This document shows positions 9,449 to 25,283 of a stretch of 37,027 nucleotides of DNA, in pieces (the first letter of the stretch is position 1; each line of letters starts with the position of its first letter). The notes below the pieces were generated by a model. That model worked only from the letters and a program-made list of their open reading frames with translations. It did not search any database and was not told where the DNA came from. The position numbers and the translations under genes were made by a program. Source of the DNA: a virus (Duplodnaviria > Heunggongvirae > Uroviricota > Caudoviricetes); the IMG/VR virus record IMGVR_UViG_2909303794_000007. One strand, given 5' to 3'.

Positions 9449-10809
9449 CGTCCACCTCCGGAGAACAGGCCACCATCACGCATCTGTGTCTGAATTTCAT
9501 CACGGGCACCCTTGCGGGCCATGTCATACACCGCCTTCAGAGCAGCCGGACCTATCTGCCCGTTCGTGCCGTCGTTGTTAATCACCACATGGTTATTCTG
9601 CTCAAACGTCCCGGACGCCTGCGACCGGCTGTCTGCCATGCTGCCCGGTGTACCGACATAACCGCCGGTGGCATAGCCGCGCATCAGCCGGTAAAGATTC
9701 CCCACGCCAATCCGGCTGGTTGCCTCCTTCGTGAAGACAAACTCACCACGGTGAACAATCCCCGCTGGCTCATATTTGCCGCCGGTTCCCGTAAATCCTC
9801 CGGTTGCAAAATGGAATTTCGCCGCAGCGGCCTGAATGGCTGTACCGCCTGACGCGGATGCTCCACCACTGGCAGCACCGCCAATGGCGCTGCCGATACT
9901 CCCGACAATCCCCACCATTGCCTGCTTAAGCAGAATTTCTGTCATCATGGACAGCACGGAACGGGTGAAGCTGCGCCAGTTCTGCTCACTGCCGGTCAGC
10001 ATCGCCGCCATATTTTGTGCAATACCATCAAAGGTCTGCGTGGCTGCACTTTTAACCTGCGACATACTGTCCGTGGCGCTCTCTTCCCACTCACTCCAGC
10101 CGGACTTCAGGCCTGCCATCCAGCTCCCGCGAAGCTGGTCTTCAGCCGCCCAGGTCTTTTTCTGCTCTGACATGACGTTATTCAGCGCCAGCGGATTATC
10201 GCCATACTGTTCCTTCAGGCGCTGTTCCGTGGCTTCCCGTTCTGCCTGCCGGTCAGTCAGCCCCCGGCTTTTCGCATCAATGGCGGCCCGTTTTGCCCGT
10301 TGCTGCTGTGCGAATTTATCCGCCTGCTGCGCCAGCGCGTTCAGGCGCTCCTGATACGTAACCTTGTCGCCAAGTGCAGCCAGCTGGCGTTTGTACTCCA
10401 GCGTCTCATCTTTATGCGCCAGCAGGGATTTCTCCTGTGCAGACAGCTGGCGACGTTGCGCCGCCTCCTCCAGTACCGCGAACTGACTCTCCGCCTTCCA
10501 CAAATCCCGGCGCTGCTGGCTGATTTTCTCATTCGCTCCGGCATGCTTCTCCAGCGTCCGGAGTTCTGCCTGAAGCGTCAGCAGGGCAGCATGAGCACTG
10601 TCTTCCTGACGATCGCCCGCAGACACCTTCACGCCGGACTGTTTCGGCTTTTTCAGCGTCGCTTCATAATCCTTTTTCGCCGCCGCCATCAGCGTGTTGT
10701 AATCCGCCTGCAGGATTTTCCCGTCTTTCAGTGCCTTGTTCAGTTCTTCCTGACGGGCGGTATATTTCTCCAGCGGCGTCTGCAGCCGTTTGTAAGCCTT
10801 CTGCGCCTC
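9445..10809 (-). pseudogene. H: Tape-measure protein H, 5'-truncated at the IS1 boundary (C-terminal ~455 codons remain)
   Basis: The frame is open from the IS1 end at 10809 to the stop at 9445 and matches the lambda H C-terminal half (...EAQKAYKRLQTPLEKYTARQEELNKALKDGKILQADYNTLMAAAKKDYEATLKK...GGLFSGGGR). The N-terminal half of H is absent. Confidence 0.9.
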
Positions 10810-10864
10810 GGTGATGCTGCCAACTTACTGATTTAGTGTATGATGGTGTTTTTGAGGTGCTCCA

Positions 10865-11140
10865 GTGGCTTCTGTTTCTATCAGCTGTCCCTCCTGTTCA
10901 GCTACTGACGGGGTGGTGCGTAACGGCAAAAGCACCGCCGGACATCAGCGCTATCTCTGCTCTCACTGCCGTAAAACATGGCAACTGCAGTTCACTTACA
11001 CCGCTTCTCAACCCGGTACGCACCAGAAAATCATTGATATGGCCATGAATGGCGTTGGATGCCGGGCAACAGCCCGCATTATGGGCGTTGGCCTCAACAC
11101 GATTTTACGTCACTTAAAAAACTCAGGCCGCAGTCGGTAA
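10865..11140 (+). CDS. insA: IS1 InsA
   Basis: 91 aa, [43 protein letters not shown]... Confidence 0.95.
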
Positions 11141-11562
11141 CCTCGCGCATACAGCCGGGCAGTGACGTCATCGTCTGCGCGGAAATGGACGAACAGTGGG
11201 GCTATGTCGGGGCTAAATCGTGCCAGCGCTGGCTGTTTTACGCGTATGACAGGCTCCGGAAGACGGTTGTTGCGCACGTATTCGGTGAACGCACGATGGC
11301 GACGCTGGGGCGTCTTATGAGCCTGCTGTCACCCTTTGACGTGGTGATATGGATGACGGATGGCTGGCCGCTGTATGAATCCCGCCTGAAGGGAAAGCTG
11401 CACGTAATCAGCAAGCGATATACGCAGCGAATTGAGCGGCATAACCTGAATCTGAGGCAGCACCTGGCACGGCTGGGACGGAAGTCGCTGTCGTTCTCAA
11501 AATCGGTGGAGCTGCATGACAAAGTCATCGGGCATTATCTGAACATAAAACACTATCAATAA
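11059..11562 (+). CDS. insB: IS1 InsB reading frame (expressed as InsAB' by programmed -1 frameshift)
   Basis: 167-aa ORF in the -1 frame relative to insA, ending ...[11 protein letters not shown]. Confidence 0.9.
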
Positions 11563-11578
11563 GTTGGAGTCATTACCT

Positions 11579-11803
11579 ATGTCATCAAAGAACAGAACCC
11601 GCAGAACAACAACCCGCAACATCCGATTTCCAAACCAGATAATTGAACAAATTAACATCGCTCTTGACCTGAAAGGTTCAGGTAATTTTTCAGCGTGGGT
11701 TATTGAAGCCTGCAGAAGAAGATTAATTAATGAAAAATATTCTCAATTTGTACCCAACAAAGACAAACACGACCAGAGCACCTGTTCAGACAGGTTTACT
11801 TAA
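11579..11803 (+). CDS. Small ribbon-helix-helix (CopG/Arc-like) DNA-binding protein (~74 aa, start MSSKNRTRR...)
   Basis: Predicted beta-strand RNIRFP, then helices NQIIEQINIAL and NFSAWVIEACRRRL, the typical RHH pattern. ATG is 1 nt downstream of the IS1 right end; the track ORF starting inside IS1 (MESLP...) is an artefact. Confidence 0.45.
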   Translation: MSSKNRTRRTTTRNIRFPNQIIEQINIALDLKGSGNFSAWVIEACRRRLINEKYSQFVPNKDKHDQSTCSDRFT

Positions 11804-11820
11804 ACGACTTATATATGACA

Positions 11821-11849
11821 CAAAAAGCGACCACTAAAGTCGCTTTTTC
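11821..11849. terminator. Bidirectional terminator between the convergent RHH and PerC-like genes
   Basis: aaaaagcgaccactaaagtcgcttttt: stem gcgac/gtcgc flanked by A- and T-runs. Confidence 0.5.
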
Positions 11850-11884
11850 TTATGGTAACAGGCAATAACTCTCTCAGATATTTT

Positions 11885-12199
11885 TTAGCATTTTTTTGAC
11901 CGCGCGTTTCCGGACGTATTCTGTTCTCCTGTCCCTTTATATCGTCGGAATACCCGCCGCTCTTCAAATCCCATTCCCAACTCAGAATGTAGTCTGTTGA
12001 CCGCTTGTTTTATTTCGGTCAGGTTCACCGGTGAAACCGGAGTCCGGCGCGCCTTACGCAAACACTCTGCTCGTTTCTGTGCCGCCACTTTTCTTTTCTG
12101 GTCATCACTTAGCTGTACCATCACTTTTGCCCATCGTTCAGCTGCTCTCCGGTACAGTCCTTTTTTCTCCAGACATTCTGCCACGTGATCATGTAGCAT
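11885..12199 (-). CDS. PerC-family transcriptional activator (Pch-like, 104 aa)
   Basis: Motif AECLEKKGLYRRAAERWAKVM resembles the PerC/Pch signature (LExKGLWRRAAxRW) as I remember it; the size matches PchA/B/C. Preceded by ~460 bp of AT-rich non-coding DNA. Confidence 0.55.
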   Translation of the reverse strand: MLHDHVAECLEKKGLYRRAAERWAKVMVQLSDDQKRKVAAQKRAECLRKARRTPVSPVNLTEIKQAVNRLHSELGMGFEERRVFRRYKGTGEQNTSGNARSKKC

Positions 12200-12664
12200 A
12201 AGTGACCTCCGATTATCTACAGACTGCCATCCTGAATTTACCTTCCCTTAATGAAATAACAATAAAAAACAAGCCACGCAAAAACAATAAAACAACACAC
12301 AAAAAAAACTAAATAATAAACAAAAATAATCACCTTATTTTATTATTTTTTGAGGGAGCAATTACTGAACAAAAAACGCTGACTATATACTCAAAACCAA
12401 ACAACTATTCTGCCAATCAGGTATCATGGCAACACACGGAATTACCGTGTTTTTGCCTTCTCTGCCCATACAATACGGGCATATACTTCATTCTCTATTG
12501 TAATATTTCTATCCATGTGCCCCACTCCATTTACCTGTAAATAATATTCAAAATATTTATCACAGAAATCGTTTTTGGCCATGAACTGAGCACACTATAA
12601 AGTCCGGAACTGACTCTTTGTTAAATTACCTTAACGTTACCAGTAACACCTTCATAACAAAACA

Positions 12665-13132
12665 TCACGGTATACACTGGGTACGGATATATTCCTGTGC
12701 TCCTTCCAGTTGCTTCTGCATTGCCATCAGCCGTTCTCTGAGGATGAAATAATCCCGTTCAGCGGCTTCTGCCAGTCGGGGGCCGGTTGCATTATCCACG
12801 CCGGAGGTGCCGGTGGCTTCACGCACGGTACCGGAGCAGGTGGCGTTGATCCGCAGGCGCTTACGACCAGCGGCAACATCAGCACGCAGAGTTTCATTTT
12901 CAGCTCTCGCATCGGCTAATTCCCTCGAGTATCTGGCATCAAGTGCAGCGACATCACGCTGGCGTATCTGCATATCAGTAATTGTCGCGTTCGCCAGCTC
13001 CAGCTCACTGGCTTTTTTATCGCGCTGCTCTTTGTAGATGATGGCGTGATCACGGTAATGATTCAGCCCCAGACTAAGCGCACCACAGGCCACCAGCAGG
13101 ACAATGATAACCACGCACAGAACACGGTTCAT
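12665..13132 (-). CDS. Rz: Rz i-spanin (start taken at MNRVLCVVIIVLLVACG...)
   Basis: N-terminal transmembrane helix then a coiled-coil-rich periplasmic region; last gene of the lysis cassette; GGTGGTG Shine-Dalgarno upstream of the ATG at 13132. The track ORF extends to 13189. Confidence 0.8.
   Translation of the reverse strand: MNRVLCVVIIVLLVACGALSLGLNHYRDHAIIYKEQRDKKASELELANATITDMQIRQRDVAALDARYSRELADARAENETLRADVAAGRKRLRINATCSGTVREATGTSGVDNATGPRLAEAAERDYFILRERLMAMQKQLEGAQEYIRTQCIP
12727..12912 (-). CDS. Rz1: Rz1 o-spanin lipoprotein embedded in Rz in another frame
   Basis: MKLCVLMLPLVVSACGS... lipobox followed by a proline-rich sequence (PPAPVPCVKPPAPPAWIMQPAP), wholly inside Rz. Confidence 0.8.
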   Translation of the reverse strand: MRELKMKLCVLMLPLVVSACGSTPPAPVPCVKPPAPPAWIMQPAPDWQKPLNGIISSSENG

Positions 13133-13467: not shown

Positions 13468-14001
13468 CTATCTGTCGATGTCCCAGCACGCCAGCGCGCT
13501 CTCCTGGTCACGCCGTGAGACCTGACCGTAGCAATTATTTGAACGGATACGGCAGTCTCTGCCACCGTCCTTAATCCACCAGCGAATCGCCTCACAGGCA
13601 CCTTTTCGATCGCCTGCATTAATTCGTTTATAAAACGTCGACGGGAAGCACTTACCGGGGCCAATGTTGTACGGACAGAATGACGCGATCCCCGCTTTCT
13701 GGGGTTCGGTCAGCGGCACCCGGATGTTTTTCTCCACCCATGCCAGCGCCTTGTCACGTTCGATGGCATTAACCCGGTCGCATTTTTCCTTTGACAGCTT
13801 CATGCCAGGAATAACAGGCTTACCATCCACCAGAATGGCACCACGGCAGATGGTCCAGATCCCCGCACCATCACGGTATGCCGTGGTGTGGTTACCTTCC
13901 TTTTCATCCAGAAACTGGTCGAGGATTTCAGGCGCAGAAGCACCTGCACCAATCAGCGCCAGAACGGCAGCCGACAGGCCGTATTTTATTTTTTCGTTCA
14001 T
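13468..14001 (-). CDS. R: SAR endolysin (lysozyme R, phage-21/933W type)
   Basis: 177 aa; N-terminal weakly hydrophobic Gly/Ala-rich SAR segment (LSAAVLALIGAGASAPEIL), then a lysozyme-like domain. Confidence 0.85.
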   Translation of the reverse strand: MNEKIKYGLSAAVLALIGAGASAPEILDQFLDEKEGNHTTAYRDGAGIWTICRGAILVDGKPVIPGMKLSKEKCDRVNAIERDKALAWVEKNIRVPLTEPQKAGIASFCPYNIGPGKCFPSTFYKRINAGDRKGACEAIRWWIKDGGRDCRIRSNNCYGQVSRRDQESALACWDIDR

Positions 14002-14118
14002 GGGGATTTATCGATTTCTAATCCCTTGATATGTTAGGTATATAATCAAACACTCATGGTCGCTCTCATAAACATATCCCTTGAGACGCAGCAGATTACA
14101 ACAAATGAAGCCATATAA

Positions 14119-14433
14119 ATGAACAGTAAAGAAAGTTTGCGCAGAAGATTTTTACAACTAATGACAGAAAACGTTAAATCAGAGTTACTTCTTCTGATGG
14201 CAGATAATAACGAAGCAACAAGCAGCATTCTTGCAGACCCTTACGGTAAGATCTCACATAAAACGCTGGATATTATTACCACAACATTAACACCGCTGAT
14301 GCTTCAACGGCTGAAACATAATATCAACGCATGGGTTAATGAAGAATTAAGTCCTCCCTGTTTATGGGATTCTCGTTACGCATGTCAGCAAAAAATGCGA
14401 ATTTTCAACTTACTATCACCAAAGCTCAGGTAG
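14119..14433 (+). CDS. Hypothetical protein (104 aa) encoded on the opposite strand inside an AT-rich insert between S and R
   Basis: Only sizeable ORF in the ~690-bp AT-rich block separating holin from endolysin; no recognisable family. Confidence 0.35.
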   Translation: MNSKESLRRRFLQLMTENVKSELLLLMADNNEATSSILADPYGKISHKTLDIITTTLTPLMLQRLKHNINAWVNEELSPPCLWDSRYACQQKMRIFNLLSPKLR

Positions 14434-14688
14434 CCATAAAATCCTGCCCTTCATGGCATACAGGATTTCAATGGAATCACAATGACCAACTCTTGCACAG
14501 CTGTATCCCTGACTCCCCGACAACTCAGATTTTCAGTATCTGCTGCTATCTAAAGAGAAAGCGCACAAATGCAAGGGCCTTTCATCACGTCCTGTTATTG
14601 ATTGCCTGTGACCTTTTCTTACCTCATGGAACGTTTTTTCAGTTAGAAATATTCATTTTACAACCAGTTCGTATTGTTTATTCATCGA

Positions 14689-14895
14689 CTACTCTCCCCG
14701 CGCCACCTTACGACGGTCCTCTCTGATTTTGAAATACAGGTTAGTCAGATACGTCAGCAGGCCAAACAGCAGACTCCCCAGCACACCTATCGCCACCCAC
14801 TGGGACGGAGAGACTTTGTCCAGCAGCTGCAGTAACCAGTATCCCGTCCCCACCGCTGACGTGGTGTATGACACACCCGTTGTGATTTTTTCCAT
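14689..14895 (-). CDS. S: Class II holin / pinholin (S21-like)
   Basis: 68 aa, [68 protein letters not shown], closely matches the phage 21 S pinholin; two transmembrane segments. Confidence 0.85.
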
Positions 14896-15150
14896 CTGAT
14901 GTATGTCTCCGTCACCGCCGACAGAAAATGAAAGTAAAGGAAAACAAAAAAGCCGCCAGTGTCACCCACTGACGGCCAACGCCGGGAGCCGTGATTATGG
15001 CATTCAGGCTCTGCTAAAAATGCCAGATAACATTCCGGCCTCCCCCGATTCAGGTTATAAATGACACAATATCTTGACAACATCCGTCACTGTCTGTCAG
15101 AAAATGTACTGCCATATAGAAGCAACATGTGAAGTACATCTATCCTTTTG

Positions 15151-15193
15151 AGCCAGCACCTCTCCACCGAAAGTCAGTGCTGGCTGTTTTTTT
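15151..15193 (+). terminator. Plus-strand rho-independent terminator hairpin (module 1)
   Basis: agccagcac...gtgctggct stem followed by T7. Confidence 0.5.
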
Positions 15194-15300
15194 CCTTAAT
15201 AAAGCATCTGTAACTGAAACAATCCGCATATTGATAATATATTGACAGGCATCATTGCTGTCTGTGAAAAATAAGTCTCTACAAACATATAAGGCCTTTT

Positions 15301-15342
15301 AGCCAGCGTCTTCTTTTTCAGGTCAGTCGCTGGCTTTTTTTA
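15301..15342 (+). terminator. Plus-strand rho-independent terminator hairpin (module 2), abutting the esterase stop codon
   Basis: agccagcg...cgctggct stem followed by T7. Confidence 0.5.
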
Positions 15343-17193
15343 TTATGCTGCCGGTGCATTTATCTCCAGCACCAGACTTTCTATCTCAACGCCATACGCT
15401 GCATTTTTTGTAACATCCGTCAGCGTCAGCGCATTCAGTCCCAGTGTCAGACTGTCTTTTATAACCTGGAATGCCGGGCCAGCCACTCCATTCAGTTTCG
15501 GAGTAACCGTGGCACTGCCGGCGGTGAACACCAGCTCCAGCGTCTGCCAGTCGTTACCGTAATCGCCGAACTCCCCCAGCTTCGTGTTTCCGGCTTTCCT
15601 GTGATGCATCAGATTCACTCTGCCGTCAGTGGTCTGAGTGAAGTACGACATCAGGAACGGATTACCGGTACCCGTCATCGCCACACCATCAGGAACGGGA
15701 GCATCCGTATACAGATAAATCCCCAGCCCGAACTGATTGTTGGTCAGTGCGCCTGACAGGCGGAACTTACAGGTCAGTCTGCCGCCCTGTGTCAGCAGGG
15801 TAATTGCGTCATCCACCGGATGCGTCAGGGACCAGGTTTTATTGCTCTGCTTGGTGATCTTAAATACACCATCTGACAACTGAATTCCGCCATCCTTAAT
15901 GCTCCAGCCCTGCGCAGCAGCCTCTCCGGCTGCCGGCAGCAGGGAGATTGTGCGAACCGACGTATCTGCAGACGGACCCGATGGCGTGTTGCCGCCGGGC
16001 GAGGGTTTGATTTCCGGTGCCTTACCACTGATGAAGGCTGAGGTGCGCCCGGCTGCGTTCAGAATAGCGGTTGCCAGACGATCCGGAATAATGCTCCTGC
16101 GCGCCCATGAACTGAAATGTGTCGGGCGGTTTGATGATACCTGGTTTCCATTCGTTCTCGATGCCGCACCGTAATATCCTGATGCCGGAATATCCGGATC
16201 TTCTGCCGGCGCGTTAGTGGCGGTATTGACGCCGTTACCGTCTGTCATGAAGGGCACAAAATAAACGCCCTCACTCTCCCTGTTTTTATACCCGCCGTAC
16301 ACGGTGTCGTACTGGGTAGCGTATGTATTTTTCCAGTAATACGTCGTGTCACCACAAATCCACGGCACATCTGCAGCACTGCCACCATGGCACTGCGCGT
16401 TAAACACGGAGAGGTCAGCACGAAACTGTGTCAGCATGGCTGTAAACAGCGCAGGTTGCTGTGCGTGGGTGGCGGCGCTCATGTCAAACTCTCCCTGCAT
16501 CCAGCACACCGCCAGCAACACATTTTTCGGGTTCTTCTGTAATGCAGCTTTAGTGCGCGCAATCAGGTCCTGATATAACGGTTTACCCACACCCCAGCGT
16601 GCCGAATCCTGGCTGGCCCCCGTGTCCGCACTGAATGTCCCCTCAGCGCCCTGGGTGAATGCAGAACCACCACGACAGCATGGTACCAGCAGGATCCCCG
16701 CGTTATTCGGGATATACGGAAGCAGTTTTTTGGCAATATGTAAGCCCTGGCCGACACAGCCGTACTGCCCTTTGCTCAGGTCTGCCTTCGGATGATTCAG
16801 CGTACTCATATCCTGCACATCATGCAGGCAGTGGTCGGCCGGAATAATATCGTTATATCTGCAGGCAGCCCCACCCGGCGTAACTGTACTGCGGCGCGCC
16901 AGCTGTTTAATGCGCGGATCCGGAGCATCGTATGAATCCGGAAGCGGAAGCCCTTCCCCGTAAGCCATTGCATTGGACTGCCCGGCCAGTACGATGACGT
17001 AGTACCAATCCGGCTCAGTTGCACCACTGACCACCACATCACCTTCTGCTGCAATCGCCTGCATCAGGGTATAAGGGGTTATGGCCACCGGACTACCAAA
17101 CGGCTGCCAGCCCTCTTTCAGTTTGTGTGTCAGCTTTTCCGCAAGGTCTGACGGCGACGCCGCCCTGACAACATCATAATGTTTAATCGACAT
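15343..17193 (-). CDS. nanS-p: Prophage sialate O-acetylesterase (NanS-p-like; DUF1737 N-domain plus SASA/NanS esterase domain plus C-terminal extension)
   Basis: 616 aa; YYVIVLAGQSNAMAYGEGLPLPD...CCRGGSAF...CWMQGEFD... matches E. coli NanS (YjhS) as I recall it. Sits where Stx phages carry this gene, downstream of the toxin locus. Confidence 0.8.
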   Translation of the reverse strand: MSIKHYDVVRAASPSDLAEKLTHKLKEGWQPFGSPVAITPYTLMQAIAAEGDVVVSGATEPDWYYVIVLAGQSNAMAYGEGLPLPDSYDAPDPRIKQLARRSTVTPGGAACRYNDIIPADHCLHDVQDMSTLNHPKADLSKGQYGCVGQGLHIAKKLLPYIPNNAGILLVPCCRGGSAFTQGAEGTFSADTGASQDSARWGVGKPLYQDLIARTKAALQKNPKNVLLAVCWMQGEFDMSAATHAQQPALFTAMLTQFRADLSVFNAQCHGGSAADVPWICGDTTYYWKNTYATQYDTVYGGYKNRESEGVYFVPFMTDGNGVNTATNAPAEDPDIPASGYYGAASRTNGNQVSSNRPTHFSSWARRSIIPDRLATAILNAAGRTSAFISGKAPEIKPSPGGNTPSGPSADTSVRTISLLPAAGEAAAQGWSIKDGGIQLSDGVFKITKQSNKTWSLTHPVDDAITLLTQGGRLTCKFRLSGALTNNQFGLGIYLYTDAPVPDGVAMTGTGNPFLMSYFTQTTDGRVNLMHHRKAGNTKLGEFGDYGNDWQTLELVFTAGSATVTPKLNGVAGPAFQVIKDSLTLGLNALTLTDVTKNAAYGVEIESLVLEINAPAA

Positions 17194-17507
17194 CGAATTT
17201 CTCCCGTGTACAGGAACAGAGTTAAAAAGCCGGAACCGGAATCAAATCACAGGATGACCATCTGCCAGTGGCTGGTCGTAAAAAAAAGGCCGCGCCATGC
17301 GCAGCCGGAAATAAAGGGATAACGATGATAGTTTGAGAAAAACAGAAATAACACTTTTGTGGCAAAGCATGGTGCCGGGTGCCTCCCGGTGAATTCAGTA
17401 CCAGCACCTGAATCCGCGATTATCCCATATACCTACTCGCTGATTGCCCCTCCGCACAGGGGGATTCACCATGCAGAAGTGTTTTTAATAAACAGCAAAC
17501 AAAAAAA

Positions 17508-18387: not shown

Positions 18388-19725
18388 CATAAGCGCTAAC
18401 TTAAGGGTTGAACCATCTGAAGAATGCGACGCCTCGGTGCCTCGTTAAGACGATGCCTCGCGTTCTTCAATTGCGTTTTGTAGGCTGTCAGGGATACTGT
18501 CCCACGAATGGCCACCTGTAAGCTCCAGATGACCATTTTTGTTATTCTCCACAACGAGTTAGTTCTTCTTTTCGGATCCGGCACTTCTGGGGGGGAAATC
18601 CAGCGATGGCTGGATTATGTCGTCAATTAAAAATGCGGCGAGTAGATTAGCAAATATCCACGCTTTCGCGAGTTCAGGTTCCTTTGCACGCAAAGCATCC
18701 AGGTGCAGCAAACTTTTGAGCCGCTTAAAAGCCAGTTCAATTTGCCATCGCAGACGGTAACAATCAGCCACTTGCTCTGCTGAATATTCATCTTCCGGTA
18801 ATGATGTTAGCAATAGCACATGGCCCGCTGCTTCCAGCGTTTCCGCCTGAACTACTCGTCCTTTTCGACGATTCTCGCTGAGCAGTCGGGTTTTACTGAT
18901 TAATGCTTTTTCGGGAGGAAGTGATACGGCAATGAGACGTGCCGGAAAGGGAGCTCCGGCTTTTTTATTACCTGAATTGCCTATCATTACAGTGGTTTCA
19001 CCGTTCTTACCGCAATCCAGCCCGCGCAGAAAACCCATCATGTCAAAGCGCATTCCTTCTGCAGTTAACCAGCGCAATCCTCGCCAGTGAACCCGGACGA
19101 TATAATCAGCTTCTCCAAAAGCAAGTGAGCGGATACATTCGGGACGCGAACCGAATCCCCGGTCAGCAATGCGTATCTCGTCTGCCGTTTGCGCAAATCG
19201 GTCCAGCCGTTCAGCGTCTCTGCTGTCGGTTAGCTCAAAATCAGTGAACTGACAGGTATGAGGATCATATCCCATATGTAGTCGCCATTCAGCGCTGCCG
19301 CCCCCGGGCGCACTGATTGCTGTTCCATCGACAAGACGCAATCTCTTTCCGCTTGTACAACCCGTAACTGCGGCGCGTACAGCAAGTGTTTGTGCGGCAA
19401 GTATGCCAAACCAGTCGGCGGCATTCCGCAGCCGCTTCAGGAGAGCCACGTCAGATAATGTTGCAACGTCATGGAGCTGAGCCCATGCAGTGACTTCACG
19501 TAATGACATCCCCCGGGGCCGTAAGCCAGCCCCAGACGTAGCAGAGTTGCAGCATCACGAATTTCGCGGCGGCGGGTTAGAGCCCCGGCATTACGTGCCG
19601 AAGTATCCAGTTCTTCGGGCTTACCAATATGGGCCAGAATTGCTGACCAGTTATCGTGAGAGTAATTCATCGGCACGTTAAATCATATCAGGCGTAATAC
19701 CACAACCCTTAAGTTAGCGCTTATG
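18388..19725 (-). mobile_element. IS186 (1338 bp) inserted into a GC-rich hairpin between the two phage tRNA genes
   Basis: Terminal inverted repeats cataagcgctaacttaagggttg (18388-18410) and caacccttaagttagcgcttatg (19703-19725), flanked by a direct repeat GGACCCGCCCC (~11 bp) at 18377-18387 and 19726-19736. Confidence 0.9.
18559..19676 (-). pseudogene. IS186 transposase (IS4 family) with a 1-bp frameshift near 19510-19514
   Basis: N-terminal ORF MNYSHDNWSAILAHIGKPEELDTSARNAG...GLAYGPGG and C-terminal ORF MSLREVTAWAQLHDV... are in different frames; one extra base in the G/C run would join them. Confidence 0.75.
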
Positions 19726-24194: not shown

Positions 24195-25283
24195 ATGCAA
24201 ATGCAGCATCTGATGGTTGGCTATCCTAAGTACTACCAAACGGCCGATTATGCGTTGAGGCTTTCAGTGATGGCTGATATAGCAACAATGAGAATGAAGG
24301 CTCTGCACTTCTGGGATAAACACGGTATTTCTGCAGCTTCTGAAGCCTTTGGCGTGTCCTGCCGCACGCTTTACTGGTGGCGTCAGTTACTGAACAAGGA
24401 AGGACCTGAGGGGCTAATCCCGCACAGTAAGGCACCTCTGGTGCGACGAAAAAAACACTGGCATCCCGATGTGCTGAAAGAGATTCGACGCCTCAGGACA
24501 GAGCTGCCGAACCTCGGTAAAGAGCAGATTTTTGTTCGCCTGAAGCCCTGGTGCGAACAGCGCTATCTGGCCTGTCCGAGTGTTTCCACCATCGGCAGAA
24601 TGATCGCTGCCGCACATGATAAAATGCGGATGATACCTGTGCGTCTGGGATCGCGGGGGAAGGCACTGCTTGTCAAAAAGCGGTCTGCCAAACCCCGCAG
24701 GCCAAAGCACTACCGCCCGGTAAAGACAGGTGAGCTCATTGGGATGGACGCCATTGAGCTCAGAATGGGCGAACTGCGTCGCTATGTCATCACCATGATC
24801 GACGAATGCAGCAATTACGCGCTGGCGCTGGCTGTGCCGTCACTCAACAGTGATATCGTCAATCACTTCTTCAGCCGCGCAGCCCGGTTGTTCCCGGTCG
24901 GTATCAGCCAGATAATCACAGATAACGGAAAAGAGTTCCTGGGAAACTTCGACAAAACGCTGCAGGAAGCCGCTATCAAACACCTCTGGACCTATCCCTA
25001 CACGCCAAAAATGAACGCTATCTGTGAACGTTTTAACCGGACGTTAAGAGAGCAGTTTATTGAATTTAATGAGATTTTACTCTTTGAAGATCTGGCGCTA
25101 TTTAACCAGAAGCTGGCGGAATATCTGGTGCTGTATAACAGCAAAAGACCCCACAAGGCGCTCGCACTAATGACGCCCGTGGAATATATTTTAAAAGAGA
25201 ATAAAAATTGCAATATGTGGTGGACCCATACATCTCCTTGCCTTTCGGCACGTAAGAGGCTAACCTACGTTTGTGAAGCATAG
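24195..25283 (+). CDS. DDE-type transposase/integrase (rve superfamily, N-terminal HTH; IS481-like single-ORF layout)
   Basis: 362 aa; N-terminal HTH region, central ...IITDNGKEF... and C-terminal ...YNSKRPHKAL... typical of the integrase core domain. The only plus-strand gene in a minus-strand block. IS ends not identified. Confidence 0.65.
   Translation: MQMQHLMVGYPKYYQTADYALRLSVMADIATMRMKALHFWDKHGISAASEAFGVSCRTLYWWRQLLNKEGPEGLIPHSKAPLVRRKKHWHPDVLKEIRRLRTELPNLGKEQIFVRLKPWCEQRYLACPSVSTIGRMIAAAHDKMRMIPVRLGSRGKALLVKKRSAKPRRPKHYRPVKTGELIGMDAIELRMGELRRYVITMIDECSNYALALAVPSLNSDIVNHFFSRAARLFPVGISQIITDNGKEFLGNFDKTLQEAAIKHLWTYPYTPKMNAICERFNRTLREQFIEFNEILLFEDLALFNQKLAEYLVLYNSKRPHKALALMTPVEYILKENKNCNMWWTHTSPCLSARKRLTYVCEA

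Follow-up and report, generated by a model that had tools for sequence, protein, structure and literature searches.

The closest known counterpart of the locus described here is the unstudied orf5/orf6 gene pair of the Stx2 phage 86. The smaller gene, orf6 (BAF34038.1), encodes a protein of 104 aa that matches the family PHROG 1853 (E=8.4e-50) and is located just upstream of the lysozyme gene R on the opposite strand. It is faced by orf5 (BAF34037.1), an intact gene for 268 aa, which converges on orf6 and combines a DUF1327 domain (PF07041, E=3.7e-45) with a C-terminal domain, in the following called the partner C-domain. A pair of the same type is carried by the Stx2a phage Stx2_12E129. A second point of comparison are the Hendrix-type morons with bor of phage lambda, a gene that is expressed in lysogens. 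The DUF1327 family includes YdfR, which is reported to bind RNase E in its catalytic, N-terminal half and to co-purify with RNA (PMC13232886; 2026). This paper was also the sole relevant match in the literature searched, in which the small gene itself is not mentioned.

We analyzed a DNA stretch of 37,027 nucleotides (the window; IMG/VR record IMGVR_UViG_2909303794_000007), which holds a lambdoid prophage of E. coli with the late genes on the minus strand. The lysis genes, all on this strand, form a cassette of the phage 21 type: S (14689-14895) encodes a class II holin (PF04971, E=1.3e-32), R (13468-14001) a lysozyme (PF00959, E=7.6e-24; PHROG 7, E=1e-61), and the cassette ends with the spanin gene Rz (12665-13132; PF03245, E=1.7e-48), in which the 61-aa ORF of Rz1 (12727-12912) is embedded. 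A gap of 687 bp (14002-14688) lies between S and R. Its GC content is 38.9%, compared to 54-55% for the three lysis genes S, R and Rz and to 51.1% for the whole window. An equally AT-rich composition was found in 0.6% of the 687-bp segments within the window, in line with the foreign composition of a moron. These values confirm the preliminary description, which had reported an AT-rich gap of about 690 bp splitting S and R and, within it, a plus-strand ORF for 104 aa at 14119-14433; the coordinates and residues of the ORF were as quoted there. Two other ORFs in the gap (14364-14726 on the plus strand and 14046-14228 on the minus strand) had no family matches and were treated as spurious, and an Rfam scan of the gap returned zero matches.

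The 104-aa ORF (14119-14433, plus strand) is a genuine, selected protein-coding gene on the strand opposite to the late genes and divergent from R. Its length alone is mildly unusual, with an ORF of at least 104 aa present in 1.8% of the gap shuffles, and we regard it as a gene because it is conserved under purifying selection rather than because of its length. Comparing the window with eight diverged homologous loci (nine loci in total, Nei-Gojobori) resulted in dN/dS values of 0.14-0.39 at dS values of 0.5-2.4, and homologues that are 33-78% identical all keep the ORF at 104-106 codons. Among the relatives, the product of phage 86 orf6 is 53% identical to the window protein. The idea that the ORF is a chance product or a dead relic without function could draw on the 1.8% of shuffled gaps that contain an ORF this long, on the defective state of the prophage and on the missing family annotation. 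However, dN/dS well under 1 at saturating dS, the conserved length among these homologues and a confident fold make this idea hardly credible, and the dN/dS result effectively refutes it. RefSeq calls the same gene from an internal Met at 14161 (WP_000138558.1, 90 aa). As the first 14 residues are conserved, with N2, L7, R8, F11, L12 and Q13 invariant in the alignment (A1), we place the true start at 14119 and not at the internal Met.

AlphaFold2, supplied with a 7-sequence alignment, returned a confident model with five helices (pLDDT 87.4, pTM 0.78), and the protein is predicted to be soluble. A hydrophobic or transmembrane segment, a signal peptide and a lipobox were all absent from the 104-aa protein, which sets it apart from the lipoprotein Bor. 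The pI is 9.3 for the window protein and ranges from 5 to 9.3 within the family.

The preliminary description could not assign the ORF to a family, and in terms of named families this is still the case: PHROG 1853 (E=3.5e-47, residues 1-102 on profile positions 57-158 of 159) was the sole family match, and its function is unannotated. Scans of the protein against Pfam (E<=0.1), NCBIfam and PADLOC gave zero matches, as did Pfam scans of 15 of its relatives. A profile search against PDB sequences yielded only designed helical proteins (E>=0.008), and a fold search against solved and viral predicted structures gave no informative match. The profile and structure searches that had been proposed as a check thus provided PHROG 1853 and a confident fold, but no functional match. 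An exhaustive profile search of 1.84 billion representatives recovered 21 proteins, all of the PHROG 1853 type, and the small gene family is present in 4 of 50,697 phage records. The family is tiny and confined to enterobacterial lambdoid prophages.

These searches also bear on the cargo that was initially suspected at this position, namely a gene for lysogenic conversion or anti-defence, for which the zero PADLOC matches and the lack of an informative fold match offer no direct support. A role as anti-defence or defence (superinfection-exclusion) cargo would fit the moron-like position and the foreign composition of the gene, its retention in decaying prophages and the format of a small soluble helical protein, which is common among phage inhibitors. 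We nevertheless consider such a role improbable, given that neither PADLOC nor the solved and viral predicted structures contain anything similar, that the pI varies from 5 to 9.3 among the members and that the family is so small and restricted to lambdoid prophages of enterobacteria.

A possible kinship to the PerC/Pch proteins, which are small activators encoded by STEC prophages, was rejected. The window encodes a PerC-family protein (11885-12199, minus strand; PF06069, E=3.8e-44), which resembles the small protein in its length of 104 aa and in the location of its gene in AT-rich accessory DNA flanking the lysis cassette, and a PerC-family gene is also the neighbour of the small gene in a remnant locus (L013). 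In contrast, the sequences are unrelated: the small protein had no PF06069 match and no BLASTP alignment at E<=100 to the PerC protein of the window. The PerC-family gene lies within a second AT-rich block downstream of Rz (11563-12664, 39.3% GC).

To compare the S-R interval across related prophages had been suggested from the outset, and the occupants indeed vary. The premise that S and R are adjacent in cassettes of the phage 21 type has to be corrected, as the two genes are often apart in relatives with holins of this type and commonly have a late-strand DUF1327 gene between them, including the Qin prophage of E. coli K-12, H-19B and Stx2_EH2201. In Qin, the gene order is essQ-ydfR-rrrQ (ydfR at 6055-6366 of L037), and the interval of H-19B and Stx2_EH2201 contains a 114-aa DUF1327 gene, which is unannotated in H-19B. 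PhiR5_1 has a longer DUF1327 protein at this site together with an unrelated ORF on the opposite strand; this small ORF, labelled 'DUF1823 containing protein' in the record, was considered as a relative and discarded, since it has no similarity to the small gene. Rather than being a fixed junction, the site between S and R in P21-type cassettes is a slot with variable occupants, which corrects a common assumption.

In Stx2 phage 86, Stx2_12E129 and seven further loci (L005-L007, L009-L012), the slot contains a convergent gene pair, with the homologue of the small gene just upstream of R. The late-strand partner has 189-268 aa in these loci, and 185-270 aa when the Salmonella prophages are included, and is arranged tail-to-tail with the small gene. 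Its N-terminus is variable (DUF1327 in phage 86, a coiled coil elsewhere), followed by the conserved partner C-domain of about 110 residues with the motifs GRCMG-LQ-AAEIE and NPPFK..W..PG..YLK-R. No Pfam family was found in the partner beyond the DUF1327 fusion and no sequence relative in the PDB, and the AlphaFold2 model is poor (pLDDT 57). In Salmonella (L029-L035) and in metagenomic loci (L025-L028), the pair is kept but positioned upstream of the holin gene, which encodes a holin of another family. In the Salmonella loci, S overlaps with R, and the closest E. coli relatives have a DUF1327 gene between them. The 3' ends of the paired genes either overlap by 18-33 nt or are separated by 8-19 nt, and a separation of 19-21 nt was noted among the Salmonella and metagenomic loci. 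The adjacency of the two genes is conserved in E. coli as well as in these more distant loci. Their products diverge in parallel, with identities of 33-42% for the partner and 33-49% for the small protein. Because the tail-to-tail synteny is strict across all three groups of loci, the gene arrangement suggests that the original role of the pair was tied to the partner. Furthermore, the fusion of DUF1327 to the partner C-domain in phage 86 hints that the late-strand slot gene may act on RNA metabolism, by analogy with YdfR. The DUF1327 genes themselves run with the late operon and have no sequence relationship to the small gene.

The pairing raises the question of whether the small protein is a specific antagonist of the late-strand partner, comparable to an immunity protein or an antitoxin-like binder. 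It would then be made in the lysogen and neutralize partner protein that leaks through read-through of the late terminator, and orphan copies would persist by neutralizing the partners of co-resident or superinfecting relatives. The tail-to-tail pair is kept in phage 86, Stx2_12E129, L005, L009-L012, L029-L035 and L025-L028, although its position relative to S differs, and the parallel divergence of both proteins points in the same direction. The STnc100 late leader of the Salmonella loci is followed by the partner as the first gene, a site prone to leaky read-through, and STEC genomes carry up to three copies of the small gene. On the other hand, the genes are convergent and do not form an operon, and neither of the two proteins matches TA or defence HMMs; the co-transcription expected of a TA pair is missing, and so is the rule that the toxin never occurs alone. 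In the Stx2a phage Stx2_95 (L036, 1285-2274), the slot is occupied by a single late-strand protein of 329 aa with a diverged partner C-domain (45% identity), and the opposite-strand small gene is absent from this slot, indicating that the two genes are not obligately coupled. Conversely, the small gene of L016-L018 lies next to a porin gene and has no partner. Taking also the low confidence of the partner model (pLDDT 57) into account, antagonism is possible, though we regard it as unlikely.

An extension of this idea would be that the small gene and its partner form an undescribed two-component lambdoid module at the entry of the lysis genes. In this module, the late-expressed partner, which is sometimes fused to the RNase E-binding DUF1327 domain, would change how late genes are expressed or when lysis occurs. 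The five-helix protein, made in the lysogen, would serve as its dedicated inhibitor, and the orphans would provide immunity against the partners of related Stx phages. We consider this version doubtful; if true, the orphans in about 12% of the complete E. coli genomes would represent stand-alone immunity. Independent of these readings, the comparison defines a convergent pair of genes that is conserved next to the lysis genes and directly testable, and this is the part worth pursuing.

In the window, the late-strand gene of the slot is dead. A DUF1327 (YdfR-like) stub (14653-14685, minus strand) starts 3 nt past the stop codon of S and comprises the initial 10 codons, which read MNKQYELVVK and are followed by a stop. 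By tblastn, the stub is identical in 11 of 12 positions to the DUF1327 N-terminus of PhiR5_1 and in 8 of 10 to phage 86 orf5, and the DNA of 14650-14898 is about 90% identical to L002 and L020. In contrast to the intact orf5 of phage 86, these 10 codons do not amount to a PF07041 domain. A decayed fragment of the partner C-domain follows at 14481-14603 (minus strand; tblastn against residues 146-186 of the Stx2_12E129 partner, 39% identity, two in-frame stops, E=2e-6 in a small search space), and the third remnant is a trace of the C-terminal KGRI of the partner. At the nucleotide level, no similarity is left across 14441-14649. The gap is therefore not one clean insertion into an adjacent S-R pair, as originally proposed, but a decayed slot, in which a DUF1327/partner gene and the small gene were convergent. 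The preliminary description had named a missed lysis-cassette gene on the minus strand as a finding that would speak against it; such a gene turned up for 14434-14688, as a pseudogene only, and not for the ORF itself.

The small gene survives intact where its neighbours decay, and it does so in the window and in at least three other lineages. In L004, the partner is frameshifted and the small ORF is intact. The ORF is likewise intact in L008, where R is broken and the partner is cut to 28 residues, and in L013, where 12 codons of R and fragments of the partner are left and the gene adjoins the PerC-family gene and a fimbrial operon. L016-L018 show no trace of a partner; here, the small gene is flanked by Q on one side and by a different holin/GH108 cassette on the other, and it directly precedes the porin gene in the same orientation. 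Thus, the gene occurs in the S-R slot (window, L004, L009) as well as in remnants that do not look like prophages and contain a PerC-family gene or an IS (L013, L008). The window prophage is itself defective, with defects at 9445-11562, 18559-19509 and 24195-25283. Only 414 aa are left of the truncated tape-measure protein, whose gene borders on an IS1 transposase gene (11059-11562) that stands where head and terminase genes are expected, and the early and late regions are disrupted by two more transposase genes (DDE_Tnp_1, rve). Since the lysis genes S, R and Rz have stayed intact as well despite these defects, the intactness of the small gene is by itself weak evidence.

The first assessment of the locus as moron-like stands in several respects. 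Like lambda bor and other Hendrix-type morons, the small gene lies beside the lysis genes, is oriented against late transcription, has a foreign composition and occurs in varied contexts of the late region; a conserved TATAAT upstream of it adds to this picture. What did not stand is the clean insertion. Compared with classic morons, the gene also has a conserved convergent partner, and a -10 element is what supports its promoter. This candidate element, TATAAT at 14041-14046 (plus strand), would belong to the putative own promoter of the small gene, although an acceptable -35 element is absent. As a consensus scan called no full sigma-70 promoter upstream of the gene, its promoter function is our inference. 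The element is part of about 115 bp of conserved upstream DNA and is found at equal distance from the ATG in the window, L008, L013, L016 and L004 (five of the six type-A loci); L009 has TACAAT instead. An inverted repeat, TCTCA-N13-TGAGA (14064-14086, plus strand), follows in the presumed 5' leader. It is kept in the window, L009, L008 and L013 and stretched to 10 bp in L016, and the folding of its RNA is no better than that of shuffled sequences (z = -0.15).

Based on these comparisons, we favour a moron-like reading, to which we give about an even chance. The late-strand slot gene, a DUF1327 N-terminus fused to the partner C-domain, has been lost from the window by deletion and decay, and the intact survivor is an autonomous small gene that is read against the late operon and has retained conserved upstream DNA. 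By analogy with lambda bor, this gene would have a promoter of its own and be transcribed in the repressed prophage, because it opposes the Q-dependent late transcription. The protein would act in the cytoplasm by binding another protein and would do so without the partner. A function independent of the partner would in turn be of use to the lysogen or to the prophage residing in it, and not to the production of virions. The gene is in any case an uncharacterized accessory gene in the lambdoid late region.

A plus-strand terminator was not found between S and the ORF stop at 14433, where a hairpin (14441-14472, z = -0.46) lacks a U-tract. The first strong hairpin with a U-tract on this strand is located at about 15151-15197, beyond S, and the classic moron anatomy of promoter, gene and terminator is therefore incomplete. 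In the intact pairs, the 3' overlap with the partner leaves no space for a terminator. Both findings would be expected if transcription itself was the function, meaning that antisense RNA from about 14050 runs through the partner remnant and S and damps leaky lysis genes, with the protein being secondary. Yet the purifying selection on the amino acids and the confident fold show that the protein itself is selected. Moreover, the small gene of L016-L018 faces no holin gene from this side, and in strain E2855 an IS1203 separates the ORF, which is still intact, from S. An antisense function is hence quite unlikely in our view, and we retain the moron-like reading with a selected protein.

We found the 687-bp interval at 99% identity or more in 621 E. 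coli records, most of which are STEC. Among 5426 complete E. coli genomes, 625 carry the allele; they include the serotypes O26, O103, O111, O121, O145 and O157:H7, and a single genome can contain up to three copies. Among deposited phage genomes, none has the window allele and matches are limited to the S and R flanks. At the DNA level, the upstream region together with the ORF (14004-14440) is 77-79% identical to L009, L008 and L013. Prophages with the small gene in their lysis cassette are thus very common in STEC. The gene is under selection in the midst of a decaying prophage, and it has no name, no family other than an unannotated PHROG and no structural relative. If it influences lysis, induction or the interactions between co-resident lambdoid prophages, it would have a bearing on the release of Stx phages.

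Some further features of the region were observed. In phage 21, an extra N-terminal start of the holin gene gives rise to the antiholin form. The window S is a 68-aa single-start holin allele, as in H-19B. The codons upstream (14893-14904, minus strand) read D-I-H-Q-M and thus lack an additional Met, so that an antiholin-type N-terminal start is absent from the window S. A 71-aa form of the holin starts with M-Y-Q-M in phage 86 and L005, and with M-K-S-M in L009.

The DNA upstream of the small gene differs between the two groups of relatives. Phage 86 has a conserved hairpin element (CAGCCCGCCAG..CACTGGCG), whereas the window has TATAAT and the inverted repeat described above. Across the relatives of the phage 86 and Salmonella type, this region contains the invariant sequence TCAGCCCG(C/T)CAGTG-loop-CACTGGCGTT. 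This element has CAGCC/GGCTG as its outer stem and is located 60-80 nt upstream of the small gene (L002 at 3890-3950, L003, L029, L026, L030, L033, L035). It is much better conserved than the surrounding coding DNA, and its single C/T change preserves a G-U pair on the strand of the small gene only. The element showed no covariation and matched no Rfam family; it is absent from the window, in which the upstream region differs.

An STnc100-type late leader (RF02076, 101.5 bits; 173 nt compared to the 206-position model) is present at 17331-17503 on the minus strand. It lies upstream of an esterase gene and marks the late-promoter leader. In contrast to phage 86, no AsxR/AgvB match was found beside this leader in the window. 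The esterase is a NanS-p-like SASA protein, encoded between the late leader and S (15343-17193, minus strand). Between S and this gene, two paralogous plus-strand units (15074-15200 and 15243-15345), for which Rfam returned no match, run opposite to the late genes. Both contain TTGACA-N17-T(C/G)A(G/A)AA and, downstream of it, a strong hairpin with a U7 tract. One hairpin, GCCAGCAC..GUGCUGGC, is located at about 15151-15197 and has a minimum free energy of -26.4 kcal/mol (z = -1.8); the other, AGCCAGCG..CGCUGGCU, is located at about 15301-15343 and has -18.8 kcal/mol (z = -1.3). The units could be small-RNA genes, or they could be terminators of antisense transcripts that run from the 104-aa gene through S.
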